Source: an uncultured bacterium
GTDB taxonomy: Bacteria; Patescibacteriota; Minisyncoccia; UBA6257; GWB1-50-10
Length of the DNA: 64,000 bases
NCBI GenBank assembly: GCA_963713955.1
Contig: OY970216.1
Coordinates: 136,075 to 200,074 of the forward strand
Reading direction: 5' to 3'
The stretch's first letter is position 1. Every line of letters begins with the position of its first letter. The translations under genes and the position numbers were made by a program. Below are positions 1-57,190 of this stretch, in pieces. Below the pieces are notes generated by a model. That model was not told the DNA's origin and searched no databases. It saw only the letters and a program-made list of their open reading frames with translations.

Positions 1-340
1 TATCCTGGTCCCGCGCCTAGCTTCATGTGGTTGAAAACAGTCGCTGTCCTCATTTTCCTCGTACTCGTTCTGCCATTTTTCCTCTTTTGGGATGATGTCG
101 TAGAAGCACTCGAGGATGCGCACGATGCGCTTGAGGAGCGATCAGGACACATTAATCTCCAAAGAATACAGCCAGCTGCTCAGCCGCAAGTACAGCAAGC
201 GGCGATAACACAACAACCATCTTCTTCTCCGGGTTGGTTTGAAAAGACCTTCGGAACAGAAGGTAAGTTGTTCGGCAAATTCTTGCCAGTCGAGGTAGCG
301 GGAGAGTTCCTGAGCAAATTCATTTTTCGTTTAATCAAGC

Positions 341-1153
341 TTGCTGAATAGGAAGGAAGGAAGGAAAGAAATGAAAGACAAGAATAAGAAAATCGGCATT
401 GTTGCTTTAATCGTTCTGGCGCTTTTGGTGAGTCTCGTATTGGGGAACGTGTGGTATTTCCTGCTCTTCGGCGGAATAGCGTTGTTGTTTCATTTTGCGA
501 GGAGCAAAGGGATACCAACCTGGAGTCTCGTACTGGTGCTGTGTATTGTTCTCGTTGCCCTTTTCAAAGCTCGTTTCCCTGATTTGTGGGAAGCGTTTAT
601 TGAATTAGGTGATTCAGGATGCATCGCTGCGAAAACAGTGATAACGCCCGTGAACAAAGGCATCGACAGTGTTCAATTCGAGGTTACGAAACACCTTAGC
701 GGTAATGCGACGGTCGAATACGCGACAGCAGCCAAGAGCATTCTGGATAGTGTTGATAACGGTAGGTGGACAGCGGTCCAAGGTCAAGTCGAGCTTTACA
801 AGCTCGACAGCCTGAAGCTGAAGAAGCTATCCGCTGCACCGCAGCCTCAGTTTCAACCCCAGTCGCCCCAGCTCCAGCCACAAGTCCTTACCTCCGATAC
901 CGTTGTGTGCGGTATTGGGGAGTACACGATCCGCCTTGATAGCACCTCCCGGTACGTCGAGATACCACCAACTGTGCGGAAGAACATCGGTTGCTTTCCG
1001 ACGATCGGATATATTGTCAGCTTTACTGACAATGGGCAGATTGATAGCGTGGCAGTTAATCAGGATGCTCGTTTCGGGAAGCACTGGCCGTGTGATTTTA
1101 CGGTCAGAGCGCTCGGGCCGACGAGTGGCCTACTCACATTAAAGTGTGAGTAA
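341..1153 (+). CDS. hypothetical membrane protein (two or three N-terminal TM helices, Gln/Pro-rich linker, Cys-containing C-terminal domain); true start probably the internal Met near 371
   Basis: Long ORF with hydrophobic N-terminal helices and QPQ linker; no recognisable catalytic motif. Confidence 0.4.
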   Translation: MLNRKEGRKEMKDKNKKIGIVALIVLALLVSLVLGNVWYFLLFGGIALLFHFARSKGIPTWSLVLVLCIVLVALFKARFPDLWEAFIELGDSGCIAAKTVITPVNKGIDSVQFEVTKHLSGNATVEYATAAKSILDSVDNGRWTAVQGQVELYKLDSLKLKKLSAAPQPQFQPQSPQLQPQVLTSDTVVCGIGEYTIRLDSTSRYVEIPPTVRKNIGCFPTIGYIVSFTDNGQIDSVAVNQDARFGKHWPCDFTVRALGPTSGLLTLKCE

Positions 1154-1213: not shown

Positions 1214-1489
1214 CTATTGCAAGAACTGTTGGATGATGGTGATGATACCGGTTGCGAGAATGCCGATCGCGACGGCGACGGCCGCGTAGATGATTTGTTT
1301 CTGTCCCTTTTTGACTCTCTCGGCGTTGTCGTCGGCCGTCAGTATGTTGAAAGCGCCGACCAATATGAAAAGCACGGCGAGGGCGAGAAGGACGGAATAC
1401 AAAGCTCCGGAAATCCTCGTGATGGCGTTCACCACTCCCGTCGGGGTGGTTATGGAAGTTGTGGCATAAGCGGTGTTTATCAAGTTCAT
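1214..1489 (-). CDS. small VirB2/TrbC-like (T4SS-pilin-like) membrane protein, CPR-type
   Basis: 91 aa; two hydrophobic helices separated by charged loop DDNAERVKKGQKQ; paralogous to four downstream genes. Confidence 0.5.
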   Translation of the reverse strand: MNLINTAYATTSITTPTGVVNAITRISGALYSVLLALAVLFILVGAFNILTADDNAERVKKGQKQIIYAAVAVAIGILATGIITIIQQFLQ

Positions 1490-1513
1490 TGGTTTTATTA
1501 TATCAAAAAACCG

Positions 1514-2359
1514 TTACTGGTTTGTGCAGACATTGAGCTCGCCGGTAAATGCACAATTCGCCGATGTACAACAGTAATTACTTGAACACTCATCGTTGGT
1601 GGTGCAGCTCTCACCGTTTTGCTTTTTCTCGGCACACCGGTACTGCTTGTTACAGTAGCCACTTACACAACCTTCGTTATTGGAGCACATCTCTCCATTT
1701 CCGAACTTGGTGAAACATACCCAGTTACCGCTCCCGCTCCTTGATTCGTCGCAAAATTGGTTTGGCAGGCACCCAGTTGATCTACAATCGAGGGGCGGTG
1801 GCTGAGATATTACTGCACAGTGTTCCGCTACACATGTCTGTCCGGATGGGCAGGGATTTGCATCAGAACACTGATCACCAGTAAGATCCACGCAGTAATC
1901 ACTTAAGCATGTTTGACCACTGGGACAGTCGGATGGTTTCACACAGCTTGTGAAAACGTTGTTTGGGTTGACGCCACTTTGGCTGCTTGATATGGCGTCG
2001 AAGAATGAGGTTATGATAAGTATAATTCCTCCCGAGATCACGGCTATGACGAGGGCGATAAGAGAGTTTTTCAGTATCTTCTTCGCCTTTTTGATCTTCT
2101 CGTCGTTTCCAGCCGCCGTCATAAAGTTGAAGGCAGATATTAGGATGAAAAGCAAAACAAGCCCTATTATTATCCCATAGAACCAATTTCTGCCCGTATT
2201 GATCGTGTCTATAACTGCGTTTATCCCCCCTTTCGAGATGCTCGTTTGAGGAGGTGCGGACATGACCGGAGACTGTATCGGCGGAACCTGCGCAAAAGCC
2301 GATGCCGCCCATCCGAGCGGCATCAACGATACGGCAATTATTTTTAATATCTTAGGCAT
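1514..2359 (-). CDS. VirB2/TrbC-like pilin paralog with Cys-rich C-terminal extension
   Basis: Signal-like N-terminus, helix-AAGNDEKIKKAKK-helix core, then approximately 150 aa with repeated CPSGQTC-type Cys spacing. Confidence 0.5.
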   Translation of the reverse strand: MPKILKIIAVSLMPLGWAASAFAQVPPIQSPVMSAPPQTSISKGGINAVIDTINTGRNWFYGIIIGLVLLFILISAFNFMTAAGNDEKIKKAKKILKNSLIALVIAVISGGIILIITSFFDAISSSQSGVNPNNVFTSCVKPSDCPSGQTCLSDYCVDLTGDQCSDANPCPSGQTCVAEHCAVISQPPPLDCRSTGCLPNQFCDESRSGSGNWVCFTKFGNGEMCSNNEGCVSGYCNKQYRCAEKKQNGESCTTNDECSSNYCCTSANCAFTGELNVCTNQ

Positions 2360-2380
2360 AGATAATCCTTATGCCGATTG

Positions 2381-2749
2381 TTATTGAGTCCCTCGATTTA
2401 TCAAGAAGCCTTGTATTACAGCCACTATACCCTTCGAGAGTACTGCGAGTGCGATGGCTATGATGGCGTATGTCAGGGTTTTCTTGGCTTTCTTGACTCT
2501 CTCGTCATTGCCAGCCGCGGTGGCATAGAAAAATGCCGCGACTATTATCATGCCGATGCCGAGAACGAGAAGTATGCCGAAGAGCCAGTTGACCACCGTG
2601 TTCAGCGTATCTCCAATTTGGGTGTAGCTTGTGTATGTGTTATTTAACCCACTTGGCAGTGTTCCTGGCGTTACAATCTGCGCAAACGCCACAAAGGGCA
2701 GTATGCTCGCTCCGTAGATTATCGCCTTTACGATATTTGTCTTTTTCAT
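2381..2749 (-). CDS. VirB2/TrbC-like pilin paralog
   Basis: 122 aa; signal peptide; helix-AAGNDERVKKAKK-helix core identical in layout to neighbours. Confidence 0.5.
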   Translation of the reverse strand: MKKTNIVKAIIYGASILPFVAFAQIVTPGTLPSGLNNTYTSYTQIGDTLNTVVNWLFGILLVLGIGMIIVAAFFYATAAGNDERVKKAKKTLTYAIIAIALAVLSKGIVAVIQGFLINRGTQ

Positions 2750-2785
2750 GGTTTTATCTTTATCCCCACGACCTTTGAAAATAAG

Positions 2786-3223
2786 TTAACCGTTCAGTAG
2801 TATTTTGACAATACTTATAATACCGCTCCCTATCAAAATTATACCATATCCGATGGCGGTGTAAAGAATGGTTTTCTTGCCTTTCTCGAACCCCTCCGGC
2901 TTGCCGCCGGACGTGAGAATTTGAATGCCCCCCACGATGATCATAAGGGCGGCGACGGCTCCGCCGACCGTCACGAGCCACTTCATGATGTTGCTGATGA
3001 TTCCCTCAATATCGTTCGTCGTGCCAAGGGGATTGACGAGGGAGATTGAGGTCTGGGTTGGTTGAGAGGGAGGATTTGGTGTTATTTGTTGGTTAGGAGG
3101 GTTAGGCGTTGTGTTGTCTGCTGCTAGAGTTATATGCATGGGCATAAGTTGCGCCGAGATCACGGTCGCACTCGATATTAGAATTAGTGCAATTGCCAGA
3201 GTTTCGGATTTCATTGTTTTCAT
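2786..3223 (-). CDS. VirB2/TrbC-like pilin paralog
   Basis: 145 aa; signal peptide, Pro/Asn-rich spacer, helix-SGGKPEGFEKGKK-helix core. Confidence 0.45.
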   Translation of the reverse strand: MKTMKSETLAIALILISSATVISAQLMPMHITLAADNTTPNPPNQQITPNPPSQPTQTSISLVNPLGTTNDIEGIISNIMKWLVTVGGAVAALMIIVGGIQILTSGGKPEGFEKGKKTILYTAIGYGIILIGSGIISIVKILLNG

Positions 3224-3238
3224 TATAGCAGAAACCGA

Positions 3239-4378
3239 TTATTTGCATGACGGCGACTCAACTATGAGACACGTGCCGTCAGAACTCACACCATTTATGT
3301 TGTTACAACTCGTCCCGTCGGGGCTACAAGCGTATTTGCCGTCAGATGCGATTTTTGCAAATGTGTAGTCGCTGGGGAAACCGATCTGCGTCTTGTACTG
3401 CTGATTCAGCATTGAGACAGCATTTTGGTTACACCAGTCCTTATAAAGGAATGGCATGGTGCCGACTGGGTAGGTTTGCGCGTTTTCGGGCGCACCTTGT
3501 ATGTTTTGCGGCGTTGTTCCGCAGGCAAACCTACCGTCATTGGCTATCGCTGCGTATAGGGAGGCACCGTTTGCACATTGCGTCTTATGGATTAGTAGAC
3601 ATGAATCGTCAGAGCTCACGCTGCTGTCGTTTATATCGTTGCAGCTTTTACCGCTCACGCTGCAAGAATATTGGCCGCTTGCGGAAAGTTTGGCAAATGT
3701 CCAGTCAGTCGTCCAAGACAAAGGATATTTGTTTAACTGGTCCGCTGCATTTACTCCGCAATAATTTGACGCCAAGAATGGCATTGTGCCTAATGGATAG
3801 ATTATAGCATGCGCCGGTACATTTATTACCCCTTGTTGTGTAGTGCTACAAATGAAAATGCCGTTGTTTGCTATCGCCGCATAGAGAGCGACAGGCGGAT
3901 TATTATTTATGTTGTTGGTGATGTTTATTGTCGGCGGCTGGGGATTATGCTGGCAGTTAATTTGGTTCCAGGCGAAGCTGGAGTTGCCCGTTAGGACGTG
4001 TATCAGCGTTCCTACGACAATCCACGAGACGAGAGCGATTGCAACGCCGGTCACGGCCTTCACGAGTATGCTTTTCCCTTTCTTGAAATTGTTTTCGCTG
4101 CCGCCGGAGATGATCATCGTGATTCCCCCGACGACGATCATAACCCCCCCGATCGTGAACGAAAAGTCGAGAAGGATCCCAATGATGTTGTTCGCGACGA
4201 TCAGGGCATCGCAAAAATCGCAGGAGGCAACGGGTCCACCCTTCGTGCTCCCTGCGGCGCACTGAGTTCCCTTCCAGATGCCGGTGCCCGCAGCGTACGA
4301 AAAGCTGAAACTTACAAGGAAAATAAGAAACCCCACAAGCAAAATCTCGGCCGATCTTTTTTCTAAGGATTTTTTCAT
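3239..4378 (-). CDS. VirB2/TrbC-like pilin paralog fused to tandemly duplicated Cys-containing C-terminal domain
   Basis: N-terminal helix-GGSENNFKKGKS-helix core; C-terminal two approximately 100-aa repeats (ALYAAIAN(N/D)G..C..T..GTMPFL...TFAK(L/I)AS(D/S)G(K/Q)Y(A/S)CS). Confidence 0.5.
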   Translation of the reverse strand: MKKSLEKRSAEILLVGFLIFLVSFSFSYAAGTGIWKGTQCAAGSTKGGPVASCDFCDALIVANNIIGILLDFSFTIGGVMIVVGGITMIISGGSENNFKKGKSILVKAVTGVAIALVSWIVVGTLIHVLTGNSSFAWNQINCQHNPQPPTINITNNINNNPPVALYAAIANNGIFICSTTQQGVINVPAHAIIYPLGTMPFLASNYCGVNAADQLNKYPLSWTTDWTFAKLSASGQYSCSVSGKSCNDINDSSVSSDDSCLLIHKTQCANGASLYAAIANDGRFACGTTPQNIQGAPENAQTYPVGTMPFLYKDWCNQNAVSMLNQQYKTQIGFPSDYTFAKIASDGKYACSPDGTSCNNINGVSSDGTCLIVESPSCK

Positions 4379-5691
4379 CAGAATCCCCCTCCGCTATTCA
4401 TTATACCAGTTATCTGGTCTTGGGCCTGCTTGAGAGCCGAATACGAATTGCCCTGGCCGGTTACCAAGGAGTCGATCATCTGGGAGAAGACGGGGTTTAT
4501 CGAACTCCTCTCGGGGCCGTACCAGGATCGGGCGTAAAGCGCCTGCTTCGCGAAAACCGACAGATTCGGGTCGTTGAGGTAATTGTTGATTAAGGAAAGA
4601 AGCGCCGGCGGATTGCCTGACGCTTTGACGTACAAATCGGCGGCCCCGGGGTTCGTGGTCATAAATTGCACGAAGTTCCAGGCAAGTCCCGCAACTCTGC
4701 TCTGCTTGGACACTGTGAAGCCGAGGTATTGCGGGGACGAAACGAAAATAGTCGAGGAAGCCGGCTGGGGCACCGGAGCGATTCCGTAATTGAGGAACGA
4801 GTTTTTTGCCTTAAGGTTGTTCTCCGCCGACTCGTAATCGAAAATCATGGCGACTTTGTTCTCCGCGAAGGCGTCGATCGAGTCGGACATGTTGTAGTTC
4901 CAGGTGTAATAAGCGCTTCCGGGATTGGAGAATTGAGTGTAAAAGCTCACGGCGGCAAGGCCGCTTGAAGAATCGAACGTCGCCGCGTTCTTGGTTTTGT
5001 CAGTTATTTGCGTGCCGTTCTGGAGCATGAGGAGCGACAAGATGCCCGTCGCGTTGTCTATGTTCGCGTCCGAGGTTCCCACGGCAGCCGCCGCCTGAGT
5101 GATAGTTCCGGTCGACGAGATCTCGGTCAATTTCGGGATCATGGCGTCGAAACCCTGCCAAGTCGACGGCGGATACACGATGCCGGCCTTGGCAAAGAGA
5201 TCTTTGTTATAGAAGAGAGCTAAGGTATCGATTGAGAGCGGGAGTCCGTAGACAGAGCTGCCGGAGACGAAATCCTGGCTGACGACCTGCGGAAAATCTT
5301 GCTGTAAATTCAGGAGTGAGAACTGCGTCGGCGAGAGCGGGATGATCTTATTGAGGTAATTCGGAAGCTCGGTCGAGGGGATCATGAAAATATCCGGCGA
5401 CTGCCCCGCGGCCATGGCTTCCAAAAGCGCATTGGTGTAGGCGTTGTAATCAGTGAACTGCCTGAGGTTTATTTTCACGTTCGGAAACGTGGCGTTGTAG
5501 GCGGCGACGATTGACGTGTAATAAGAAAGATCGTCTCCGTAGAGCCACGCGGTGAGCGTTCCCTGCACGCTCGCAGGGTTGGTGGTGGTGTTTTTGGATC
5601 CGGGCAATATCCCGGCGAAGATGAGTCCGAAGATCAGTATGACGAGAATCGCTCCACCGAAAATGATAAGTTGGGTTTTGGTTAAAGACAT
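4378..5691 (-). CDS. ABC transporter substrate-binding protein (family 1, sugar-type), membrane-anchored
   Basis: N-terminal TM anchor then SBP_bac_1-like sequence ([13 protein letters not shown]); start overlaps gyrA stop by 10 nt. Confidence 0.65.
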
Positions 5692-8126
5692 ACGATGCCT
5701 ACTAACTTATCGCCTTTATCTAAGTTCATGATTTTTACTCCCTGCGTCGCCCGGCCGAGGATCCGCACGTCTTTAAGGGGCAACTTAATCGCTTGGCCCC
5801 GGGAAGAAAAAGCGATGATCTCTTCCGTTTCGGGGCCGACCACGTGGGCGCCTATCACAGGGCCGGTTTTCTCGGTGATTTTGGCCGTTTTGATGCCAGA
5901 ACCGCCCCTCCTTTGTATTTTATACTCTTTGAGGTTTGTTTGCTTCCCGAAGCCGTTCGCAGTCACGGCCAAGAGCTTCGATTCGGATATCGATTTGGCC
6001 GATACGACGTCGGCGCCGGAGACCGCATCTCTCTTTTTGAGTTTTATGGCCTTCACTCCTCCGGCAGTCCGACCCATGCTCCTGATGTCTTTTTCTTTGA
6101 ATCGGATGGCCTGTCCGAGGCTCGTCGCGAGGATGATTTCATCACCGCCCCCGGAAAGCTTCACCCACAAGAGCGCGTCGTCCCCGGCGAGCTTCACGGC
6201 TATGATCCCGTTCCTCCTCACGTTTTGGAAATCCTTGAGTGTCGTTTTCTTTATTACGCCGCCCTTGGTTATCATAACCAAAAATCCTTCCGTCGTGTCC
6301 TTTGGATAGGAAATCACGGTCGAGACTTTTTCGTTTACGGGCACCTCGAGGAAATTGTAGATCGACTTCCCTTTGGAGGTTCTCGTCGCTTCCGGTATTT
6401 CATAGGCCTTGGTTTGGAACGCCCGCCCTTTGCTCGTGAAAAACAAAACGTTGTCATGGGTATTTGCGTAAATGATCTGGGAGATTTTATCTTCCTCTTT
6501 CAATTCCGCGCCGATCAAACCCTTGCCGCCGCGTTTTTGCGAACGGAACGTACCCGGCGGCATCCGCTTGATGTAACCGTCCTCGGAAACCGTTATGATC
6601 GAGTCGCCTTCGGGTATAAGATCCTCTTCGTTGAACTCTTTGAGACCGCCGGCTACTATTTTCGTCTTGCGTTCATCGCCGAACGTCTTTTTAAGTTCGG
6701 CAAGGTCGCTCTCTATGATGCCGAGGATTCTCTTTGGATCCTTCAAGATGGCCTTGAGTTCGGCGATGAGTTTTTTCTTTTCGGCGAGTTCGTCTTCCAG
6801 TTTTTGCCGTTCGAGCGCCGCCAAAGACTGCAGTTTCATTTCCAATATGGCTTCCGCCTGTACGGCCGTCAGTTTGAAGTTCTTCATCAAGTTTTCCTTG
6901 GCCGTTTCCTTGTCTTTGGATTTCTTGATGGTGGCGATTATTTTGTCTATGACATCCAGGGCTTTCACGAGGCCCTCCAGGATGTGGGCCCGCTCCTCGG
7001 CTTTCTTGAGATCGAATTCTGTTCTTCTCGTTATGACAAGTTTCCGGTGTTCGAGATAGTACGAAAGGATATCCTTCAAGGAAAGGACTTGCGGCTGGAT
7101 GCCGTCGACGAGGGCCAGCGTGTTGTAGTAAAAATTTTTCTGGAGTTCGGTGTACTCGAAAAGCTGGTTCAGGATCTTCTGGGGATTGGAATCGTTCTTA
7201 AGCTCGACCACGATCCGCAATCCTTCCCGATCCGATTCGTCGCGGACGTCCCGGATACCTTCTATTTTTTTCTCTTGGACCAGTTCCGCAATCTTCGTCA
7301 CGAGATCTGATTTGTTGACCTGATAGGGGATCTCTGTGACGACAATCTGAAAGCTGCCGCTTTTCCTCTCCTCTATCTCAGCCTTCGCCCGCATCGTGAT
7401 AGATCCTTTTCCAGTCGAGTAGGCTTCTTCAAGCGATTTTTTGCCGTAGACGATGCCGCCGGTCGGGAAGTCTGGCCCCTGGATGAACTGCATGAGATCC
7501 TTCACGGTCGCGTCCGGGTGTTTGGTAAGATGAACGATCGCATCGGCCACTTCGTCGAGGTTGTGTGGAGGAATGGACGTCGCCATGCCGACGGCGATCC
7601 CGACCGTGCCGTTCAGGAGCAGGTTGGGGAGTTTTGCCGGCAGGAATCGCGGTTCCTCGCGGGTCGAGTCGTAGTTGGGTATCCAGTTCACGGTCTCCTT
7701 CTCGATGTCCATAAGCATTTCTTCCGCGATTCTTGAGATCCTACTTTCGGTATATCTCATCGCCGCAGGGCTGTCGCCGTCAACCGAGCCCCAGTTGCCT
7801 TGGCCGTCGATTAAGGGGTAACGCAATGAAAAATCCTGGGCCATGCGGGCCAAAGCATCATAGACCGCCATGTCGCCGTGCGGGTGGTATTTCCCCAAGA
7901 CTTCCCCGACAACATTAGCGGATTTTTTGAATTTGGCGTTATGAGTAAGCCCTGTGTCCCACATTGCCCAGAGGATTCTCCGTTGGACTGGTTTTAGGCC
8001 GTCCCGGACGTCCGGAAGCGCACGGGACACGATGACTGACATCGCGTAATCCAAGTAGCTCTCCGAAAGTTCCTCGGTTATCTCTTTTTCTTCTATTTTG
8101 CCTTGTTCCTTTTTCTCTTCGCTCAT
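5682..8126 (-). CDS. gyrA: DNA gyrase subunit A
   Basis: [25 protein letters not shown]-terminal beta-pinwheel repeats; 814 aa. Confidence 0.95.
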
Positions 8127-9353: not shown

Positions 9354-10445
9354 ATGACGATAAACATAAAAAACGGGGGCGGTTCGATAGGCCAAATTTT
9401 GAAAACCAACCACTCTTTTTTGCCGACCCTCCGGGCGGGCGATCTGGTCGAAGGCAAGGTTCTCGAGAAGGGTTCTGCGAAGCTCTTCGTTGATCTCGGC
9501 AAGTACGGGACAGGCGTCGTCTATCGGGGTGAACTCCAGAATGCGAGGGAGTTCGTAAAAAATCTCGGTGTGGGCGACCCCGTCCACGGCAAGGTGATCG
9601 ACATAGACAATGAAGAAGGATTCGTGGAGTTGTCACTCTCGGAGGCCGACAAACAAAAAGCCTGGACCGAGGTGCAGGAACTCAAAGACAAAGACGAGAT
9701 ACTGACCGTCAAAATTTCAGGGTTCAACAAGGGTGGCCTCATAGTGGATCTGAAGAGCCTCTCCGCCTTTTTGCCGGTTTCCCAGCTTTCCAATGAGCAC
9801 TATCCCAAAGTCAGCGCGGAGGATCGGTCAAAAATCTTACAATCGCTCCAGCTTCTCGTGGGCTCCGAACTCAAAGTGAGAATCATCGACGTGAATCCCC
9901 GAACGACGAAGCTCATCATCTCCGAACGGGCGGCCGAGGAAATGAGCGCGCGGGACCTCGCCAAGAACTATTCCGTGGGGCAAGTCATCGAGGGTATTGT
10001 CTCCGGCGTGGCTGACTTTGGCGTATTCGTCCGGTTCACGGACAACCCGGCCGTGGAAGGATTCATCCATGTGTCGGAAATTGACTGGAAGATGATAGAA
10101 AATCCGAAGGAAGTTCTGAAAGTCGACGAAGTGGTGAAAGCGAAGATCGTGGACATAAAAGACGGGAGGATTTCCCTTTCTCTCAAGGCACTTAAGGAGA
10201 ATCCCTGGACCAAGGTTTTGGAGTATTTCAAGGACGGCGATGAAGTCAAGGGAACAGTCTATCTCTTTAACCCGTTCGGAGCGGTCATAAGCCTGGAGCA
10301 CGACTTCCAGGGCGTGATACGGGTCACCGAGTTCGGGGGAGTCCCTGAGATGAAAAAACAGATTTCGCAGGGGGAGGAATATTCGTTTATAATAGAATCG
10401 GTGAAGCCCGAAGAGCGAAGAATCAACCTCAAATTAAAGAAATAA
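9354..10445 (+). CDS. rpsA: 30S ribosomal protein S1 (short 4xS1-domain form)
   Basis: Four S1 repeats (GD.V.GKV, G.V.G.V); 363 aa. Confidence 0.8.
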
Positions 10446-10496
10446 GCAGCTACGGAATACGAATCTCTTACGAATTCGTAATTCGTAGAGAAACTC

Positions 10497-12338
10497 ATGA
10501 ACAAATTCGTTAAAAGTTTTTTGATTGGCATCATAACTCTTTTTGCATTTGCGTTCATCTTCTCCCTGTTTTCAGGATCCTCGGGCGTGAGTCCCAAGCA
10601 GATAACAGTAGGCCAGCTCGCCCAAGACGTGAGTGCGGGAACCGTGAAAGACCTCACCGTAAACGGTAACGATCTCAAGATCGATCTCACCGATGGTAGC
10701 ACAGCCATCTCGCAAAAAGAGGCCGAAACGGGGATTGTCGAGACGCTTCGGAATCTCGGCATCTCTTCCACGTCGATCTCGAAGGTGAACATAAATGTGG
10801 AGAACGAAAGTGGCGCGAAGTACTGGGCCGGCGTCTTGATTCCCACGCTTCTCCCGCTCATCCTTATGGTTGCCTTCTTTTGGTTTATATTCAGGCAAGC
10901 GAAGACGGGCGCGAACCAGGCGTTCAATTTCGGGAAGGTGAACATACGGCTTTTTTCTTCGAACAAGGACAAAGTCACCTTCAAGGACGTTGCCGGTCTC
11001 AAGGAAGCCAAGGAAGAGTTGACTGAGGTGGTGGATTTCTTGAAACATCCGCAGAAGTTTTTGGAAATCGGCGCGCGGATCCCGCGGGGGGTTCTCTTGG
11101 TGGGACCGCCGGGGACCGGGAAAACACTCCTCGCGAGGGCTGTTGCCGGCGAGAGCAATGTTCCGTTTTTTCACATCTCCGCGTCCGAGTTCGTCGAGAT
11201 GTTCGTGGGAGTCGGTGCATCGCGCGTACGGGATCTTTTCCAAACAGCAAAGAAAGCTGCCCCCTCGATCATATTCGTGGATGAAATAGACGCCGTGGGC
11301 CGCGAACGCGGCACCGGCCTCGGCGGCGGCCACGACGAGCGCGAGCAAACGCTGAATCAGATATTGGTTGAAATGGACGGGTTCGATCGGGACACGAACG
11401 TCATTGTGATGGCGGCCACGAATCGGCCGGATATCCTTGACTCAGCGCTCCTCCGGCCGGGAAGATTCGACCGGCGGGTAGTTTTGGATATCCCGGACAT
11501 CAACGATAGGGAAGAGATTTTGAAAATACATTCCGCGGGGAAACGCTTCGAGAAAGACGTTGATTTGAGGGTCGTCGCGGTCCGAACTCCTGGGTTCTCG
11601 GGCGCCGATCTCGCCAACCTGGTCAACGAAGCTGCCATATCGGCCGCCCGGAAAAACCAGCGGACGATAACTCAAGCCGACCTCTTGGATTCGATAGAGA
11701 AAGTAATGCTCGGCCCGGAGAGGAAATCGCGGGCCATATCCCCGAAGGAAAAAGAAATAACCGCCTATCACGAGGCGGGCCACGCGCTGGTTGCCGCGAT
11801 GCTTAAAGATGCGGACCCCGTGCACAAAGTTTCGATCATCTCGCGGGGTCTCGCCGGCGGCTACACATTGAAACTCCCGATTGAAGAAAGGCACCTGAGA
11901 ACCAGGGCCCAATTCCTCGCTGATTTGGCGGTCGCGTTCGGCGGATATGTCGCCGAAATTTCCGTGTTTGGTGATATTTCGACCGGCTCATCTTCCGATA
12001 TTAAGGAGGCCACGGAAATGGCGAAGCGGATGGTCACGACGTACGGTATGAGCGACCTCGGCCCCCGTTCGTTCGGCAAGACCGAAGACATGATTTTCCT
12101 GGGGCGCGAGATAACCACGGAGAAGGACTACTCGGAGGAAGTGGGGAACAAGATAGACGAGGCGGTGAATAATTTCGTTCAGAAAACTTTTGGGGCTGCC
12201 AGGAGCATCATCTCCAAAAACAAGAAAGTTCTCGACAAAATAGCGAGCGTACTCATCGAGAAAGAAACCCTGGAAAAGGAGGATTTCTACGCGATCATCA
12301 AGAGCTTTAACTTGAAACCAATCGCCATAAAAGCATAG
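10497..12338 (+). CDS. ftsH: ATP-dependent zinc metalloprotease FtsH
   Basis: N-terminal TM, Walker [28 protein letters not shown] zinc motif. Confidence 0.95.
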
Positions 12339-12351
12339 AATATCCTAAGAA

Positions 12352-12423
12352 CGGCACGTAGCTCAATGGCAGAGCAGACGTCTTATACACGTCCGGTTGT
12401 AGGTTCGACTCCTACCGTGCCGA
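12352..12423 (+). tRNA. tRNA-Ile, anticodon UAU (gene TAT)
   Basis: Manual cloverleaf: acceptor CGGCACG/CGTGCCG, D stem GCTC/GAGC, anticodon stem GACGT/ACGTC, loop CTTATAC, T arm GTAGG-TTCGACT-CCTAC. Confidence 0.6.
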
Positions 12424-12442
12424 CTCTCTTTCAGGCGTATCG

Positions 12443-12514
12443 GGGCAGTTAGTTCAATGGCAGAACGTCTGTTTTACACACAGAAGGTTGTAGGTCCGAT
12501 TCCTACACTGCCCA
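12443..12514 (+). tRNA. tRNA-Val, anticodon UAC
   Basis: Manual cloverleaf: acceptor GGGCAGT/ACTGCCC, anticodon stem TCTGT/ACAGA, loop TTTACAC, T loop TCCGATT. Confidence 0.75.
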
Positions 12515-12573
12515 CTGAAAATTTGGAATTGATTTTCATTGACAAAAAGGGCCAGCGGACTTAGCTTGAAAGA

Positions 12574-13092
12574 ATGGACGTGAATGGATCAAGCTTAAAG
12601 TTCAATACGTCTTACGGATTGCAGATTGATCTTGAGTCGGTTGCCGACGAGGTCGTTTCTTTCATGGAACGGAAGCCCCAATCTTCGTACAAGATAACGA
12701 TCGGGAGCGATTCCGAGCTCTTGGAGGACAAGACCGCCGATTTTGTGACGGCCGTCGTCGTTCACCGCATCGGAAACGGCGGCAGATATTTCTGGAGGAG
12801 GGTGAAACTCGGCAAATTCTACAATCTGCACGACCGGATCGTGAGGGAAGTTATGCTCTCGATCGACGCTTCGAACGCGTTCCTGAACGTTTTGAAGACG
12901 AAGATCCAATTGAAAGCCGAAGAAGGCCTCAATTTCAGGTGGGATTTTGAAATCCATGTCGACGTCGGCGAAAACGGACCGACGAAGACGCTCATCCAGG
13001 AAGTGGTAGGGATGGTCCGGGCGCACAATTTCGAGGCGAAGACGAAACCCGAGAGCTACGCTGCTTCGAACGTCGCGGACATTTATGCATAA
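12574..13092 (+). CDS. hypothetical protein, possibly RNase H-like fold (DUF458/YkuK-like)
   Basis: 172 aa, acidic residues in ITIGSDSE and EIHVDVGENG; assignment from size and motif resemblance only. Confidence 0.3.
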   Translation: MDVNGSSLKFNTSYGLQIDLESVADEVVSFMERKPQSSYKITIGSDSELLEDKTADFVTAVVVHRIGNGGRYFWRRVKLGKFYNLHDRIVREVMLSIDASNAFLNVLKTKIQLKAEEGLNFRWDFEIHVDVGENGPTKTLIQEVVGMVRAHNFEAKTKPESYAASNVADIYA

Positions 13093-13655
13093 TGGATACC
13101 CTCGTTATCGACATCGAAACCAAGAACTCTTTCCAGGACGTTGGCGGGAGAGACAATCTGAAAGACTTGGAGGTTTCGGTAATCGGGGTTTATTCGTATG
13201 AATCTGACAAGTACAGGGCTTTTGACGAGCATGAACTTGATGATTTCGGCAAAATCCTCCAAAAAACGCAGCTTATCGTCACGTTTGCTGGCAAGCGTTT
13301 CGATCTGCCCGTGATGTCCAAGTATTTCGACTTTGACATCCGGGCCATACGGCATTTCGATATTCTCGAGGAAATAGAAGAAAAATACGGCCGCCGGATC
13401 GGCCTTGGCATACTTGCGGAAGCCAACATCGGCGCCGGCAAAACCGGCCATGGGATGGAAGCCGTCGATCTTTACGCGCGGGGCGAAATGGAGAAGCTTA
13501 AAAGTTACTGCCTGAATGATGTAAAATTAACGAGAGGATTGTACGATCTCATCAAGAGCCGGGGGTACCTCTGGATGCCGCAGCGGAATTCGAATGAGAT
13601 GATCAAAGTCGAAATCGCCCCGGCCGAAGAATCGCAGCAAAACCAACTAATCTAA
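13092..13655 (+). CDS. DEDDy-type 3-prime to 5-prime exonuclease (YprB/RNase_H_2-like, PolB-exo-like)
   Basis: Exo I IDIET, Exo II AGKRFDLP, Exo III YCLNDV..LYDL; start codon overlaps upstream stop (TAATG). Confidence 0.55.
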   Translation: MDTLVIDIETKNSFQDVGGRDNLKDLEVSVIGVYSYESDKYRAFDEHELDDFGKILQKTQLIVTFAGKRFDLPVMSKYFDFDIRAIRHFDILEEIEEKYGRRIGLGILAEANIGAGKTGHGMEAVDLYARGEMEKLKSYCLNDVKLTRGLYDLIKSRGYLWMPQRNSNEMIKVEIAPAEESQQNQLI

Positions 13656-13666
13656 TCCCTGGAACA

Positions 13667-13990
13667 ATGTTCAAACTGAAAAAAAACAAGGTAATAGTGA
13701 CAGTCTTTGCGGTACTCCTCGCGTTAAGCGTCGTTTCCATTTATATACCGGCGCTTTTTCCTCCTCAAACGCAAAGCGCAATCCCGGTAAACCAAAACCA
13801 AAGTTCTTACCCTGCAACGGCGGCAACCACCACGGGAACAACTACGCCGGAAACGCCTTCTTCGACTCCGAACCAAAAAGTCAGCAGCCCGTCAACTTCG
13901 ACGTCGAATCTTCCTTCCAGCTTGCAAGGTTTGCAGGGGGAGGAAAACGGCCTGAATGACATCCAGAACAGTTTGAATAATGGAAAATGA
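13667..13990 (+). CDS. small membrane-anchored Ser/Thr/Pro-rich protein
   Basis: N-terminal TM helix then low-complexity T/S/P tail; overlaps glyA start by 4 nt. Confidence 0.35.
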   Translation: MFKLKKNKVIVTVFAVLLALSVVSIYIPALFPPQTQSAIPVNQNQSSYPATAATTTGTTTPETPSSTPNQKVSSPSTSTSNLPSSLQGLQGEENGLNDIQNSLNNGK

Positions 13991-15147
13991 GGGATAAAGA
14001 AATCGAACGGTTAATAAAGGAAGAGGAAGCGAGAGAAAGAAAAACGGTTGATCTCATAGCTTCCGAGAATTTCGTCTCGGATGACGTTTCGAAAGCGTTA
14101 GGGTCGGTTTTTACGAACAAGTACGCGGAAGGGTATCCCGGCGCGAGATATTACAGCGGCATGGCTGTGGCCGATAAACTGGAAAACCTCGTGAGGGCGA
14201 GGGCTTTGAAGCTCTTCAGGTTGTCTCCGAAGCAGTGGTGCGTCAGCGTGCAGCCGTATTCGGGGTCGCCCGCGAACTTAGCAATCTATCTGGCCCTTGT
14301 TCCACCTGGAGAAAAAATCATGGGGATGAGTCTTGCGATGGGTGGCCACCTGACGCACGGCCAGAGAGTGAGCGTGACGGGAAAGATATGGCAGCAAGTC
14401 CCCTACGGTGTTTCACAGAAAACGGAAACCCTCGATTACGCCGAGATTTTGAGAATAGCCAAGAAAGAAGAACCAAAGATCATCGTCGCCGGGTACACGG
14501 CGTATCCCCGGATCATCGATTTCGGCAAGTTCAGGAAAATAGCCGATAGCGTCGGGGCAATCCTTATGGTTGATATGTCTCACTTCGCGGGCCTCGTGGC
14601 CGGCGGTGTATACCCCTCTCCCTTCAGATATGCGGATATCGTTATGACGACGACGCATAAAACGCTCCGCGGACCCCGCGGCGCGATGATCTTTTCCAAG
14701 AAAGAGTATTCTCCGATGATCGATAAAGCAGTTTTCCCGGGCCTCCAGGGCGGACCGCACTTGAACGCGATCGCAGCAATTGGTGTAGCTCTTTACGAAG
14801 ATAGTAAACCTGCTTTTAAAACGTACGCGAGGCAGGTTGTGAAGAACGCGAAGGTCTTGGCCGGAGAATTGCAAAAACTCGGGTGGCGGATCGTTTCCGG
14901 CGGCACGGATACCCACCTCATTTTGGTGGATACCATGTCCCGCGGGATCGGCGGCAAGGAAGCAGCCGAGAAGCTCGAAAAAGCCGGGATAATAGTGAAT
15001 AAAAACACGATCCCCTACGACACGCGAAAGCCGATGGATCCGTCGGGCATTCGCCTCGGCACGCCGGCCGTCACGACGCGCGGGATGAAAGAGGACAATA
15101 TGAAAAGGATCGCCCAAAAGGTAAACGTGGTCTTGACAGGGAAATAG
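13987..15147 (+). CDS. glyA: serine hydroxymethyltransferase
   Basis: THKTLRGPRGAMIF PLP-lysine motif, ASENF, overall SHMT collinearity; 386 aa. Confidence 0.9.
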   Translation: MRDKEIERLIKEEEARERKTVDLIASENFVSDDVSKALGSVFTNKYAEGYPGARYYSGMAVADKLENLVRARALKLFRLSPKQWCVSVQPYSGSPANLAIYLALVPPGEKIMGMSLAMGGHLTHGQRVSVTGKIWQQVPYGVSQKTETLDYAEILRIAKKEEPKIIVAGYTAYPRIIDFGKFRKIADSVGAILMVDMSHFAGLVAGGVYPSPFRYADIVMTTTHKTLRGPRGAMIFSKKEYSPMIDKAVFPGLQGGPHLNAIAAIGVALYEDSKPAFKTYARQVVKNAKVLAGELQKLGWRIVSGGTDTHLILVDTMSRGIGGKEAAEKLEKAGIIVNKNTIPYDTRKPMDPSGIRLGTPAVTTRGMKEDNMKRIAQKVNVVLTGK

Positions 15148-15383: not shown

Positions 15384-16730
15384 ATGGAAACAGCAATTGT
15401 TGCAACTGCCCCAACGGCCTTAGGAACCGTCGTTGAGAAATCGAATATCCGTTCATCTCTTGGCCCGTTTCTCACTTTCCCTGACTACAGAGTCCAATAT
15501 CCAGAGAAGATCGTTCGAGCGCTCGGGACGCTGTACCGGGAGTACAACAGGTCGTTCGGCCCCCTGGTAGAAATGAATAGAGAGTGGGAGGGCGACTACC
15601 GATATTGCTTTCCGAACAGCGTACCAATCAATTACGCCGTTCAGGTTGACATGACGGGATTGCCGGACGAGTTGCTTACCGCTGCGGTTGGCATGTCGGA
15701 TGGCAATGTGGAAGAGGTTCTACGGGACAGGATCTTTGAAATCGAAAATTCTCTTGCCATGTATCAATTCCTGCTGGAGGTTTTCCCGGGACATTTCAAG
15801 GGGCCATTCCAAGCGCTTCTCGCTAGCCTGAGGGGGAGATATGGAATGCCGATCGCCCTTTTGGCAGTGACTGATCAGAAGTACCAATCAATGAGAGAAT
15901 CGGAATTTGGCAAATCGTCCGGCGACATCCTAACGGACGACGAGGTGAAAAAGCTATCCGGCTTCGATAAGTTCTTTAGTCCGAGTGAATTCCAGGAATA
16001 TCTTGCAACGAATGGCGGAGAGTGTGGGTTTCTTCTCTATGCCCGCACCTCCGACCCCATTGCAAAATTGAGGCAGCCGAGCCTGGAGGTTGAACATCCA
16101 TTGCTTGGAGAAGCAGAAACGAGGAAGATCATTAAGGAATATGCCCTTACCTTTAACGTTGATGCTCCTCGGATGGCTTACAACCATCGGATCAACGATA
16201 CGAAGGAATACTTACCGCCGATGAGAATGGCATTTCCGTTGTATGTCGAGAGGGATTTGTACTCTTACGAACTCACAGAGTATCTATCCCGCGGGAAACC
16301 TTATCTGGAGTTTCCTTCCGGCAATCGACTTTCTCCCGGTTTTGCCGACTATCTGGAAAGTCGGAAGATCGATCCGGATGACGTGGATTGCGGCCGGCAA
16401 TTTCTCCGCTTTAAGCCGATGAAAGGCGCGTACGGATGCTATGGTCACATTCGAGGGTCTCTTGCTAAAGCCGATGTCCGGAAGGGTTTGCGGAAAAACC
16501 TGCAAGAGCGCGGGGCGTATGTTGTGCAACCGGAAATGCAGATGTCCACCGTCGTGAGCGCGACCGGGAAGGCGTATTCGTACATCGATAGGAACTTCTT
16601 GGGATTCGTGAACGACGAAGTCAGGTTCTTGGGCGGTTTCCGATCGTTCCTGGAAATTGATTCCGAGGAAGTTAAAAACGGAAGGAATCATGGGAACCGA
16701 TCGACCATCTATGCCGCTATTACTGTCTGA
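15384..16730 (+). CDS. hypothetical cytoplasmic protein (448 aa); C-terminal FKPMKGAYGCYGHI...VVQPEM weakly resembles ATP-grasp K-loop/hinge
   Basis: Good RBS AGGAG 8 nt upstream; no TM; no firm family assignment. Confidence 0.5.
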   Translation: METAIVATAPTALGTVVEKSNIRSSLGPFLTFPDYRVQYPEKIVRALGTLYREYNRSFGPLVEMNREWEGDYRYCFPNSVPINYAVQVDMTGLPDELLTAAVGMSDGNVEEVLRDRIFEIENSLAMYQFLLEVFPGHFKGPFQALLASLRGRYGMPIALLAVTDQKYQSMRESEFGKSSGDILTDDEVKKLSGFDKFFSPSEFQEYLATNGGECGFLLYARTSDPIAKLRQPSLEVEHPLLGEAETRKIIKEYALTFNVDAPRMAYNHRINDTKEYLPPMRMAFPLYVERDLYSYELTEYLSRGKPYLEFPSGNRLSPGFADYLESRKIDPDDVDCGRQFLRFKPMKGAYGCYGHIRGSLAKADVRKGLRKNLQERGAYVVQPEMQMSTVVSATGKAYSYIDRNFLGFVNDEVRFLGGFRSFLEIDSEEVKNGRNHGNRSTIYAAITV

Positions 16731-19821: not shown

Positions 19822-20538
19822 TTATTGTGGTTGGCTTGGGTTTTGTGTCGACGTTTGGTTTGGATTGGTGCTTGTACCAGTACTGGTACCGGCCTCCGGC
19901 TGATAAAAGATCTGCTTTGTGACTGAATACTTTCTCCCCAGAACTTTCGTGGCTTCGAAGTTGAACGTGTTGAATCCGGGGTTCAAAACGACAGCTTTCT
20001 TAAATGTGCCGTCTGATTGCGGAACGATCGATTCGTCGTTCACGGTGAGCTCGTCCCCCGAGGTCAGCGTCCCCATGATGGTGAAGTTCTGGCTTTTGGA
20101 TATGGTTATGGCATCTGGCAGGTTTTTCAGTACGAGCTCGGGCGTTCCCAAGATGCTGGGGAGTCGGATCGTGAGGTACGCAACGATGAGGACAGCCACT
20201 ATTATACCACCGATCGCAGCCTTGTTCATTTTCGGAGCCCGGAATCTGTTGGAAGGCGGGGTATCCTTTTCTCCCGATCGCTTGATACCTTCCCTATTCT
20301 CGCTGAATTCGTTCCAAGCGGCGTCTCCATCGAGACCCAAAACGTCGCTTATTTTCATGATGTAGCCGTGGAGGTAGGGAGCGGCCGGAAGCTTGTTGAA
20401 TTTCTCCTCTATGATGAGGGATATGACGTTTTCGGGTATGCCGGTGAGCTCGGAGAGTTTCTGGACCGATATTCCTTTGATCTTCAGTACCTCGACCAGC
20501 GAATCAGCAAAATTTTTACGTTCATTCTCCGGCATCAT
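19822..20538 (-). CDS. RodZ-like protein (N-terminal HTH, single TM, C-terminal DUF4115-like domain)
   Basis: XRE-type [33 protein letters not shown], beta-rich C-terminus. Confidence 0.5.
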
Positions 20539-40378: not shown

Positions 40379-40486
40379 AAGTTGATTGTGATATAATTTG
40401 TTCAATGAGAAGGGGGATTAATTTTGCATTAAACACTCATCTTGTTTTCAGCCATCTTTGGTCGGGATGGCTTCGTTCGTTTTAAA

Positions 40487-54387: not shown

Positions 54388-54459
54388 TGCCCTCGCGAAG
54401 AATCGAACTTCGATCCGCGCGTTAGGGGTGCGCTGTTCTGTCCGTTGAACTACGAGGGC
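54388..54459 (-). tRNA. tRNA-Arg, anticodon CCU, with C33 and an A31-C39 mismatch
   Basis: Acceptor GCCCTCG/CGAGGGC, D stem GTTC/GAAC, anticodon loop CCCCTAA, T arm CGAAG-TTCGATT-CTTCG. Confidence 0.5.
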
Positions 54460-56766: not shown

Positions 56767-56811
56767 CCCGCTCTCCATATGGAGAGCGGGAAGCCATAAA
56801 TCTGTGGATAA
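56767..56811. promoter_or_regulatory. second copy of palindrome (CCCGCTCTCCATATGGAGAGCGGG) plus AAGCCATAAATCTG-TGTGGATAA DnaA-box-like module
   Basis: Shares 45 bp with 22734-22780; sits in divergent promoter region between radC and pilin-like gene. Confidence 0.4.
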
Positions 56812-56869
56812 CCAACACTCTCACCTTCCCAAAACAAAAAGCCAGACACCTTCCTGCTATAATGAAAAG

Positions 56870-57190
56870 ATGAACTTCAGTAGTCGGAACAGCTTCACCC
56901 TCATCGAGCTCCTGGTCGTGATCGCCATCCTTGCCGTCTTAGCGACAGCCGTCGTCTTGGTCTTGAATCCTGCCCAGCTCCTGGCTCAAGGAAGAGATTC
57001 AACCCGTCTCTCAGATCTCGCAGCTTTACAGAGCGCCCTCTCCCTCTTCCAGGCTGATCAATACAGTCAATCCCTGGGAATTGCCTCTACGACCTATATC
57101 TCGATCCCTGATTCCTCCTCTACCTGTGGGGACTTGGGGCTTCCTGCCCTTCCTTCAGGATACTCCTATGCCTGCGTTCCATCCTTGTGA
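56870..57190 (+). CDS. type IV pilin-like protein (prepilin N-terminal cleavage/methylation domain), C-terminus possibly truncated by IS insertion
   Basis: MNFSSRNS-FTLIELLVVIAILAVLATAVVL prepilin signature; stop codon TGA lies inside the IS3 left inverted repeat. Confidence 0.6.
   Translation: MNFSSRNSFTLIELLVVIAILAVLATAVVLVLNPAQLLAQGRDSTRLSDLAALQSALSLFQADQYSQSLGIASTTYISIPDSSSTCGDLGLPALPSGYSYACVPSL

Follow-up and report, generated by a model that had tools for sequence, protein, structure and literature searches.

What does a tandem set of small pilin-like proteins do on a bacterial chromosome when it lies away from any secretion machinery? The question is raised by a 64,000-nt stretch of DNA from an uncultured member of the Patescibacteriota (assembly GCA_963713955.1, contig OY970216.1, forward-strand positions 136,075 to 200,074; hereafter the window), in which five adjacent minus-strand open reading frames (ORFs), p1-p5, span positions 1214-4378. 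A first-pass annotation of this DNA had read them as VirB2/TrbC-like pilin paralogs and had proposed a variable surface filament or adhesin system rather than a conjugation apparatus. It had missed that the array forms the far end of a conserved module that begins with the gene for a solute-binding protein (SBP). This position, directly after an SBP gene and away from secretion machinery, is what is new here, and it recurs in the window and in ~70 related metagenome loci. The array as such, five genes of Pfam family PF18895 away from virB4, is another example of a published kind, for which a missing VirB4 is not unusual. From the first to the last gene, the string reads as follows.

5682-8126, minus strand: gyrA, 814 aa, first gene of the string; Pfam DNA_topoisoIV and DNA_gyraseA_C
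4378-5691, minus strand: SBP gene, 437 aa; family-1, predicted to be membrane-anchored, oligosaccharide-binding (MalE-like); Pfam SBP_bac_1 (PF01547), 101 bits
3239-4378, minus strand: p5, 379 aa; predicted signal peptide, Cys motif, two-helix core, FAW motif, two repeats
2786-3223, minus strand: p4, 145 aa; predicted signal peptide, Pro/Gln/Thr-rich linker, two-helix core
2381-2749, minus strand: p3, 122 aa; minimal canonical form, predicted signal peptide ending AFA/Q, loop AAGNDERVKKAKK
1514-2359, minus strand: p2, 281 aa; predicted signal peptide ending AFA/Q, loop AAGNDEKIKKAKK, C-terminal extension of ~150 aa
1214-1489, minus strand: p1, 91 aa; last in the string, stop codon TAG; PF18895 at 35.7 bits, two transmembrane (TM) segments only

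Five tandem paralogs with a shared two-helix core

The genes of this string are packed tightly. The 3' end of gyrA overlaps the SBP start by 10 nt, the SBP stop overlaps the p5 start codon by 1 nt, and the spacers within the array measure 24, 21, 36 and 15 nt (given from the p1/p2 side onward), while a strong ribosome-binding site of the GGAGG type for p5 lies inside the 3' end of the SBP gene. To judge from the packing, the overlaps and the internal Shine-Dalgarno sequence, gyrA-SBP-p5-p4-p3-p2-p1 is an operon-like string.

The cores of the five proteins can be aligned over ~85 residues at pairwise identities of 19-39%, and common to all of them are two hydrophobic helices joined by a basic loop, AAGNDE(K/R)(I/V)KKAKK, which is exact in p2 and p3 and takes variant forms in p1, p4 and p5. 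A hydropathy scan placed a signal-like N-terminal helix and two TM helices in each of p2-p5, whose signal segments end at AFA/Q, ISA/Q or SYA/A and are predicted to be Sec-type signal peptides with AxA-like sites. In p1, the same scan found a short non-hydrophobic leader followed by two TM helices, with no hydrophobic signal peptide. Beyond the core, p2 and p5 carry large C-terminal extensions. That of p2 (~150 aa) contains 22 Cys arranged in small repeats and gave weak, sub-threshold Pfam matches to Dickkopf_N and DUF7107; that of p5 (~240 aa) consists of two 108-aa repeats that are 47% identical to each other and hold 6 Cys apiece, and its single-sequence AlphaFold2 model was unusable, with a predicted local distance difference test (pLDDT) score of 47. 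A local hidden Markov model (HMM) of the five cores detected no sixth copy among all six-frame ORFs of the window.

Family searches place the proteins with the pilins of the candidate phyla radiation (CPR). The Pfam model PF18895 (T4SS_pilin, for type IV secretion system, T4SS), with a gathering cut-off of 26.6 bits, was matched above that cut-off by p1 (35.7 bits), p2 (36.1), p3 (48.7) and p4 (44.5), at E-values from 9e-9 to 8e-13. At 22.6 bits (E 1e-4), p5 fell just below it and was recovered by the local core HMM (107.9 bits) and by positional orthology as a divergent subfamily; its weak Pfam score is explained by membership of the divergent first-position subfamily described below. None of the five reached the 27.9-bit cut-off of PF04956 (TrbC/VirB2), the sole match being that of p4 (22.2 bits, E 1.6e-4). 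In NCBIfam, the equivalog model NF045849 ('Mbov_0395 pilin-like conjugal transfer protein', cut-off 40 bits) was passed by p2 (40.1 bits) and p3 (43.0 bits), which align to nearly the entire 80-position profile, with p1, p4 and p5 below the cut-off. A homology search with the p3 sequence by itself returned only p3, and homologues needed a profile search, which yielded 490 at E <= 0.001. Among the 120 matches listed, PF18895 was present in all 120 and PF04956 also in 22, and the homologues are named at NCBI as 'pilin [Patescibacteria group bacterium]' or come from Ca. Falkowbacteria and Ca. Buchananbacteria.

A relation to VirB2 itself was recovered at greater distance. With hhalign, the 120-member family profile aligned to the A. 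tumefaciens T-pilin VirB2 (the mature sequence, identical to PDB 8cue/8exh) with a probability of 64% and an E-value of 6.5e-5 over 56 columns, in a register that spans the DP-containing N-terminal segment, helix 1, the W-M turn and helix 2, the CPR loop having 8 additional residues. From an alignment of 120 sequences, AlphaFold2 predicted p3 as a signal helix (residues 4-24) followed by a hairpin of helices 42-76 and 82-121, with a pLDDT of 89-95 in the hairpin. Features of the VirB2/TrbC functional class (signal peptide, two TM segments, short basic loop) are present, p1 being without the hydrophobic signal peptide. Taken together, p1-p5 are classified by these comparisons as T4SS_pilin proteins of the CPR type and as remote relatives of VirB2/TrbC. 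Much of the first-pass annotation is borne out at this point: the five minus-strand paralogs with a common core and shared loop, the order of leader, helix 1, Lys-rich loop and helix 2, the division into three minimal proteins (p1, p3 and p4, 91-145 aa) and two with large extensions, and the placement in the CPR-specific T4SS-pilin-like family, for which significant matches and a helical hairpin were found. Its VirB2/TrbC relation holds as a remote one.

The published frame for such genes is a survey of 3,035 Patescibacteria genomes with PF18895, PF04956 and other profiles (Quinonero-Coronel et al. 2025, PMC12102498). It defines a VirB2 array as at least two pilin genes (PF18895/PF04956) in a Patescibacteria genome, in tandem or with one non-pilin gene between them, and reports 441 arrays of 2-11 genes in 383 assemblies, with a mean identity of 25% and a maximum of 54% (PMC12102498). 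With five adjacent pilin genes, the window array falls within this definition. The T4SSs of these bacteria are the only Gram-positive-type ones with VirB2-like pilins (2025 review, PMC12857230); other Gram-positive T4SS classes have no virB2 homologues, and the CPR pilins were perhaps co-opted from diderm systems (PMC12102498). Because p2 and p3 reach the NF045849 cut-off, their scores suggest instead that VirB2-like proteins may be native to monoderm systems of the mating-pair formation (MPF) type FATA, and the matches sit uneasily with co-option from diderms.

An SBP gene precedes the pilin genes in related genomes

Among PDB entries, the closest relatives of the SBP upstream of p5 are sugar and oligosaccharide binders (4r9f, E 2.8e-21; 6rjy, E 3.4e-16), and an N-terminal hydrophobic segment is visible in its translation. 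The window has no ATP-binding cassette (ABC) permease or ATPase gene next to the SBP gene, and no conserved cluster of that kind was found within 8 kb in 82 related loci. Homologues that carry names belong only to Patescibacteria/Parcubacteria lineages ('Patescibacteria group', Candidatus Jorgensenbacteria, Liptonbacteria, Brennerbacteria, Wolfebacteria and 'Parcubacteria group').

Patterns drawn from the SBP alone identified 80 metagenome loci, in which SBP identity ranges from 33 to 68% and GC content from 24 to 66%. Across these 80 loci the pilin-core profile matched solely downstream of the SBP gene and on the same strand, with no match upstream. Sixty-nine loci were informative, having at least 600 nt of sequence downstream of the SBP, and in 67 of them a called pilin gene lies <=1.5 kb from the SBP end. 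The two exceptions are L009, where the ORF picker missed a gene that is visible as a six-frame match at +159, and L018, where the first six-frame match is at +1089; the SBP-then-pilin linkage is accordingly counted as 67-69 of 69 informative loci. Where at least 5 kb of downstream sequence is available, a locus carries 1-7 pilin genes (median 3), and 7 of these 33 loci have a single pilin after the SBP. Upstream neighbours vary: GyrA is found in 35 loci, a small S-adenosylmethionine (SAM) methyltransferase in 33, and GalU, ComM and SMC in 12 each. GyrA stands upstream in 35 of 82 related loci, and the SBP strand is shared by 34 of 36 GyrA copies.

Four further loci (L090-L093) were seeded by pilin homologues instead of the SBP, and all four show an SBP followed by a pilin, with no VirB4 within 10 kb. 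One of them (L092) has GalU, the SBP and five pilins, as in the window. The other three (L090, L091 and L093) have SMC, ComM, the SBP, one pilin, a RodZ-like helix-turn-helix gene and a methyltransferase, and then, a few kb on, a separate array of six pilins. The only GTDB match to the SBP (L006) is 34% identical, at 64% GC; its SBP gene overlaps by 4 nt the first of six pilin-core genes, that first gene has a Cys-rich extension, and upstream there is only a MacB/FtsX-type pair, ~2.5 kb from the SBP. A gene pair that is kept adjacent, on one strand and nearly touching amid changing surroundings is a classical sign of functional coupling. Because the SBP-pilin pair stays together and co-stranded while its flanks change, we infer that the two are functionally coupled. 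A literature search found no description of such a coupling, and no SBP is mentioned in the virB4-neighbourhood survey (PMC12102498) or in the study of the S. epibionticum array (PMC10633639).

Some features of individual loci are recorded here in their own right. The GTDB match (positions 9962-14461 of CAYOXM010000006.1) is a contig of a metagenome-assembled genome labelled 'uncultured Gammaproteobacteria' and holds two SBP_bac_1 genes and a six-gene PF18895-type array, which means that the label is mistaken or that the module also occurs beyond typical low-GC CPR genomes. On the 529-kb and 418-kb contigs of L090 and L091, the SBP-pilin module lies at ~13-35 kb, i.e., within ~35 kb of the contig start, and in L065 (SBP at 4043-5473) a dnaA-like gene lies ~2.5 kb upstream of the SBP. 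Since T4SS genes are often near dnaA in Patescibacteria (PMC12102498), these positions raise the possibility that the SBP-pilin module may also be origin-proximal.

First-position pilins form a subfamily and the paralogs keep their places

Pilins that directly follow the SBP stand apart from those at later positions. In comparisons across loci, 65 of 69 first-position pilins had another first-position pilin as their best match, and 109 of 113 later-position pilins had a later-position one (in both counts the cases are not phylogenetically independent). The first-position proteins share two motifs, both on the outer side: P..C...G.C.(F/L)CD just before helix 1 and G(N)..FPW after helix 2. Their counterparts in p5 are C40 and C53-D-F-C56-D before helix 1, and FAW after helix 2. 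On the evidence of motifs and best matches, the p5-type pilin directly after the SBP is a distinct subfamily.

All five paralogs have collinear one-to-one orthologs in two relatives, L009 and L011. Identities to L009 are 87% for GyrA and 68% for the SBP, and 39, 51, 48, 39 and 76% for p5, p4, p3, p2 and p1, so that p1 is the best-conserved paralog there and the pilins diverge faster than their neighbours GyrA and SBP. In L011 (GC 0.32) the SBP is 49% identical, and p5, p4, p3, p2 and p1 are 35, 58, 43, 47 and 52% identical. The ortholog of p2 in L009 has 249 aa, and the C-terminal extensions of p5 and p2 are almost lineage-specific. Given this collinear orthology, the paralogs are old, positionally fixed and non-redundant, and the window array can be read as the VirB2-like (PF18895) subunit set of a Parcubacteria-type chromosome, composed of five ancient paralogs. 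Such a pattern fits a heteromeric structure with distinct roles, and a variation cassette does not fit it. It also matches the S. epibionticum array of six pilin genes (SEML1_0014-0019, PF18895), every one of which is essential (Wang et al. 2023, PMC10633639). An apparent strain polymorphism in L002/L003 (p4 of 142 or 66 aa, p2 of 269 aa) was rejected, as the DNA is 100% identical and the lengths differ by start-codon calls only.

T4SS components and the genomic context

Pfam scans of all other plausible genes of the 64 kb found no VirB4, VirB6, VirD4 or PrgI in the window, which agrees with the first-pass annotation on VirB4, VirB6 and VirD4, and a hydropathy scan found no multi-TM proteins among the unannotated window ORFs. 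The FtsK encoded at 20522-22627 has chromosomal alpha and gamma domains. This absence tests one side only, because the array lies near a contig end: it is 1.2 kb from the left edge of the window and ~1.4 kb from the end of ENA ERZ25039477 contig_62680, a 133,353-bp contig that ends ~150 bp past that edge. Leftward, 1.2 and 1.8 kb are added by two Logan contigs that match the window at 100% identity over 11.3 and 5.8 kb, and in this added sequence there is no T4SS gene, only three lineage-specific genes and a cytidylyltransferase-like gene.

How much a missing VirB4 says about function is set by the published survey, in which VirB4 occurs in 2,417 of 3,035 Patescibacteria assemblies (80%) and VirB2-like pilins and VirB4 occur together in 1,948, near each other in 1,135 (58%) and apart in ~42% (PMC12102498). 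Because pilins lie near virB4 in just 1,135 of those 1,948 assemblies, a detached array is normal and is no argument against use by a distal T4SS. The step from a missing VirB4 to 'not a conjugation apparatus', which the first-pass annotation had taken, is weak for that reason; its conclusion is in line with the literature, in which these T4SSs are described as mostly lacking relaxases and coupling proteins, and it rests on that literature and not on the window.

A probable heteromeric surface structure tied to a sugar-binding receptor

The reading that we favour, and hold to be probable, is that the array encodes a heteromeric VirB2-like surface structure, assembled by a T4SS whose genes lie elsewhere and linked in function to a sugar-binding receptor. 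In such a scheme, Sec would insert p1-p5 so that the two termini face outward and the Lys-rich loop is cytoplasmic, giving a membrane pool from which a VirB4/VirB6-type T4SS (monoderm, MPF-FATA-like), encoded elsewhere in the genome, would pull the pilins. The extracted subunits would form a short heteromeric pilus or pilus-like stalk, with the small paralogs p3, p4 and p1 as its body and the extension-bearing p5 and p2 as minor or tip subunits that display Cys-rich domains outside. The co-translated, membrane-anchored SBP and the p5-type subunit would act at the same site as a host-glycan receptor or capture module, and the structure would be tied to host recognition or nutrient acquisition, not to DNA conjugation.

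Several points weigh against this scheme. No VirB2-like-pilin filament has been shown in any Patescibacterium, and the pili whose structures have so far been solved in a CPR bacterium belong to another, Ig-like (immunoglobulin-like) type (10.64898/2026.03.03.709456). A Foldseek search of PDB with the p3 model gave nothing significant (best E 0.74), the family profile found only chance hits and no pilin match among PDB sequences, and the helical hairpin predicted for p3 is a generic fold that agrees with a VirB2-type pilin and cannot prove one. Proteins as large as 281 and 379 aa are difficult to accommodate in a VirB2-type lattice as its major subunits. A classical pilus model predicts no SBP partner, and VirB4, VirB6 and PrgI were not seen in the window or, in ~86 related loci, within 8-10 kb of the module.

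A more specific proposal would make the SBP and the p5-type pilin physical partners, in a T4SS-pilin-based organelle that bears an oligosaccharide receptor and senses or harvests glycans in Parcubacteria-type CPR. We put it forward tentatively, as a possibility well short of an even chance. In its most radical form, this glycan-receptor organelle would work without VirB4 at all.

Detached altogether from secretion, the hairpins could be membrane partners of the orphan SBP and 'pilins' by ancestry only, where they would provide a docking platform, a signal transducer or, in place of an ABC permease, an unconventional uptake channel. We judge a T4SS-independent SBP complex of this kind unlikely, although several of the observations above are what it would lead one to expect. 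SBP and pilin are adjacent nearly universally (67-69/69) despite changing flanks, with a stop/start overlap that suggests translational coupling, and neither an ABC permease/ATPase cluster nor VirB4 adjoins the SBP in any locus. At its smallest, the conserved unit consists of the SBP and a single p5-type protein (7/33 loci have just one pilin), that protein has its own conserved extracellular Cys and FPW motifs, and in L090, L091 and L093 the SBP-pilin pair lies a few kb apart from a six-gene array. We know of no two-TM hairpin family, however, that serves an SBP. Homologous arrays in Saccharimonadia lie within a T4SS cluster, are essential together with it and have no SBP; VirB4 and pilin genes are near each other in 58% of the genomes that have both, and with VirB4 in 80% of Patescibacteria a partner machine is probably available (PMC12102498).

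More improbable is the variable surface filament or adhesin of the first-pass annotation, in which the paralogs would provide antigenic or host-range variation, as proposed for Bartonella and Anaplasma. The paralogs are merely 19-39% identical, the pilins evolve faster than their surroundings (39-76% identity to L009, against 87% for GyrA and 68% for the SBP), the extensions of p5 and p2 are almost confined to one lineage, and adaptation to different host strains has been raised as a possibility for arrays (PMC12102498). The attribute 'variable' nevertheless finds no support in the collinear one-to-one orthologs in relatives whose SBPs are 68% and 49% identical: order and orthology are kept down to 49% SBP identity and from a GC content of 0.50 to 0.32, which is the signature of fixed roles. 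Contigs assembled from two further sequencing runs match the window here at 100% identity, no silent cassettes or signs of switching were noticed, without any repeat search, and the six S. epibionticum pilin genes are each essential and hence not interchangeable (PMC10633639).

That the array is the remnant of a monoderm, Mycoplasma-like integrated conjugative element (ICE) whose ATPases were lost is hardly credible: p2 and p3 do reach the cut-off of the Mycoplasma ICE pilin-like model NF045849 and there is an rve-family integrase gene at 57248-58030, but that integrase is 53 kb distant, the array sits amid housekeeping genes (gyrA, ftsH, S1, serine hydroxymethyltransferase, recA, ftsK) at even GC, no relaxase, coupling protein or attachment-site-like features are present, and the module lies beside core genes in dozens of divergent lineages, indicating vertical inheritance.

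A VirB2-like structure with a receptor partner would matter for a group in which the role of T4SSs has been called 'completely unknown' (2024 perspective, PMC11665869) and in which S. epibionticum, the one species tested, requires its T4SS and pilin array for epibiotic growth (PMC10633639). The near-invariant coupling of pilin and orphan SBP across very divergent Parcubacteria-type genomes, independent of virB4, is a testable lead: it predicts that SBP and pilin interact and that there is a glycan ligand. Among the 'pilins', an SBP-coupled first-position subfamily can be told apart from the ordinary members of arrays, and the fixed-component behaviour of the paralogs argues against antigenic variation. 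If true, a glycan-receptor organelle would link the essential, unexplained patescibacterial T4SS and pilins to host recognition or nutrient capture.

Transcription signals and other features of the window

Two candidate regulatory features lie in or next to the array.

2838-2865, minus strand: promoter-like site, TTTACA, 16 nt, TG-TATAAT; 11/12 consensus matches, inside the 3' end of p4
1161-1193, no strand assigned: GC-rich hairpin, AGCGCGCC ... GGCGCGCT, read directly from the sequence

The promoter-like site, ~90 nt upstream of the p3 start, comes from a consensus scan only; it was the top scorer among 14 sites, against 8.4 +/- 2.8 expected in shuffles. The hairpin occupies the 60-nt spacer that separates the p1 stop from the stop of a convergent gene (341-1153). 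It is likely the end of a transcription unit, yet a simple terminator scan did not call it, and its T-run is better on the plus strand. Both features are consensus-level hints. Upstream of the p1 start (1490-1513, minus strand) the sequence reads TTGATATAATAAAACC-ATG, with an extended -10-like element (TGnTATAAT) whose end is 7 nt from the ATG and no Shine-Dalgarno sequence in 1490-1513, which hints that p1 may have its own, nearly leaderless transcript.

Three genes left of the array, convergent with it, encode proteins of 260, 264 and 188 aa (341-1153, plus strand; 25-351, plus strand, continued in L002 at 10191-12357); the 260- and 264-aa products are membrane proteins, and no Pfam match is on record for any of the three. 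As parts of the system they were rejected, having no homologue in any of 82 related loci. The cytidylyltransferase-like gene beyond them has a homologue that sits downstream of the array in the close relative L009.

Elsewhere, the window carries genes for replication, repair and division (GyrA, RecA, RecO, RadC, FtsK), translation and RNA (ribosomal protein S1, TruB, NusA, TsaD, five aminoacyl-tRNA synthetases), proteases (FtsH, HtrA), and metabolism and cell wall (serine hydroxymethyltransferase, FolD, H+-pyrophosphatase, Mur ligase), together with an extracytoplasmic function (ECF) sigma factor, a HlyD-type protein, one type IV pilin-like gene and one rve integrase. Between the genes for serine hydroxymethyltransferase and an M20 peptidase, a 448-aa soluble protein (15384-16730, plus strand) has no Pfam match at E <= 0.001; the gene was called on an independent Logan contig too, likewise without a Pfam family. 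The products of 37185-38978 (plus strand, a DUF11 protein) and 40442-43162 (plus strand, fn3/Kre9-like Ig-type domains) have one N-terminal hydrophobic segment each, are probably surface proteins and could act in host contact. The type IV pilin-like gene (56804-57190, plus strand, with an N_methyl motif) adjoins the rve-family integrase gene (57248-58030, minus strand), which is probably part of an insertion sequence (IS) element.

A tRNA gene at 54388-54459 (minus strand; Rfam tRNA 55.7 bits) was assigned the anticodon CTA by ARAGORN ('tRNA-Pyl', amber suppressor). Shifting the anticodon by one base gives CCU (Arg) as an alternative reading of the loop, and in both readings position 33 is C. 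In a count of 46 genes the stop codons were TAA (19), TAG (15) and TGA (12), and the genetic code is standard. Amber suppression through this tRNA was judged unlikely, as TAG ends 15 of the 46 genes.

Comparison with known systems

The most distant parallels concern organisation. Minor-pilin and pseudopilin sets of type IV pili and type II secretion comprise about five ordered, divergent paralogs, the larger ones at the tip; the likeness to the window array is analogous only, as their N-methylated type IV pilin fold and their machinery are unrelated. In the conjugative plasmid pCF10, PrgZ is a permease-less SBP tied to a Gram-positive-type T4SS, where it acts as a receptor, a family-5 peptide binder in pheromone uptake, whereas the window SBP is predicted to be a family-1 sugar binder. 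The Pam pilus of CPR bacteria was rejected as a counterpart for its unrelated Ig-like donor-strand-exchange fold (10.64898/2026.03.03.709456).

The A. tumefaciens T-pilin (PDB 8cue, 8exh) shares with the window proteins a signal peptide, two hydrophobic helices and a basic loop, at the level of remote homology. Unlike VirB2/TrbC (PF04956), the window proteins have a loop ~8 residues longer and a monoderm host and are five paralogs in place of one; two of them bear extensions of 150-240 aa, and their genes are not beside VirB3-VirB11. With Mbov_0395 and MMCAP2_0565 of Mycoplasma ICEs there is the likeness that p2 and p3 pass NF045849 and that both systems belong to monoderm T4SS lineages of the MPF-FATA type. 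The NF045849 model is an equivalog for a mobile-element protein, and the window array is not such: it is chromosomal, with no ICE, no CDS17/VirB4 and no nearby integrase or relaxase. The VirB2 arrays of Bartonella and Anaplasma (cited in PMC12102498) likewise contain several tandem divergent VirB2 genes in a host-dependent bacterium; they are discussed as sources of antigenic or host-range variation, in contrast to the fixed positional orthologs of the window.

Closest are the arrays of the Patescibacteria themselves. The six-gene array of S. epibionticum (Saccharimonadia) lies inside a T4SS cluster and has no SBP, while that of the window follows an SBP_bac_1 gene with no VirB4 within 8-10 kb. 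With patescibacterial VirB2 arrays at large, the window array shares the PF18895 family, the phylum, a chromosomal location without a relaxase, and tandem paralogs that are divergent but structurally similar, with 19-39% identity in the window compared with a published mean of 25%.

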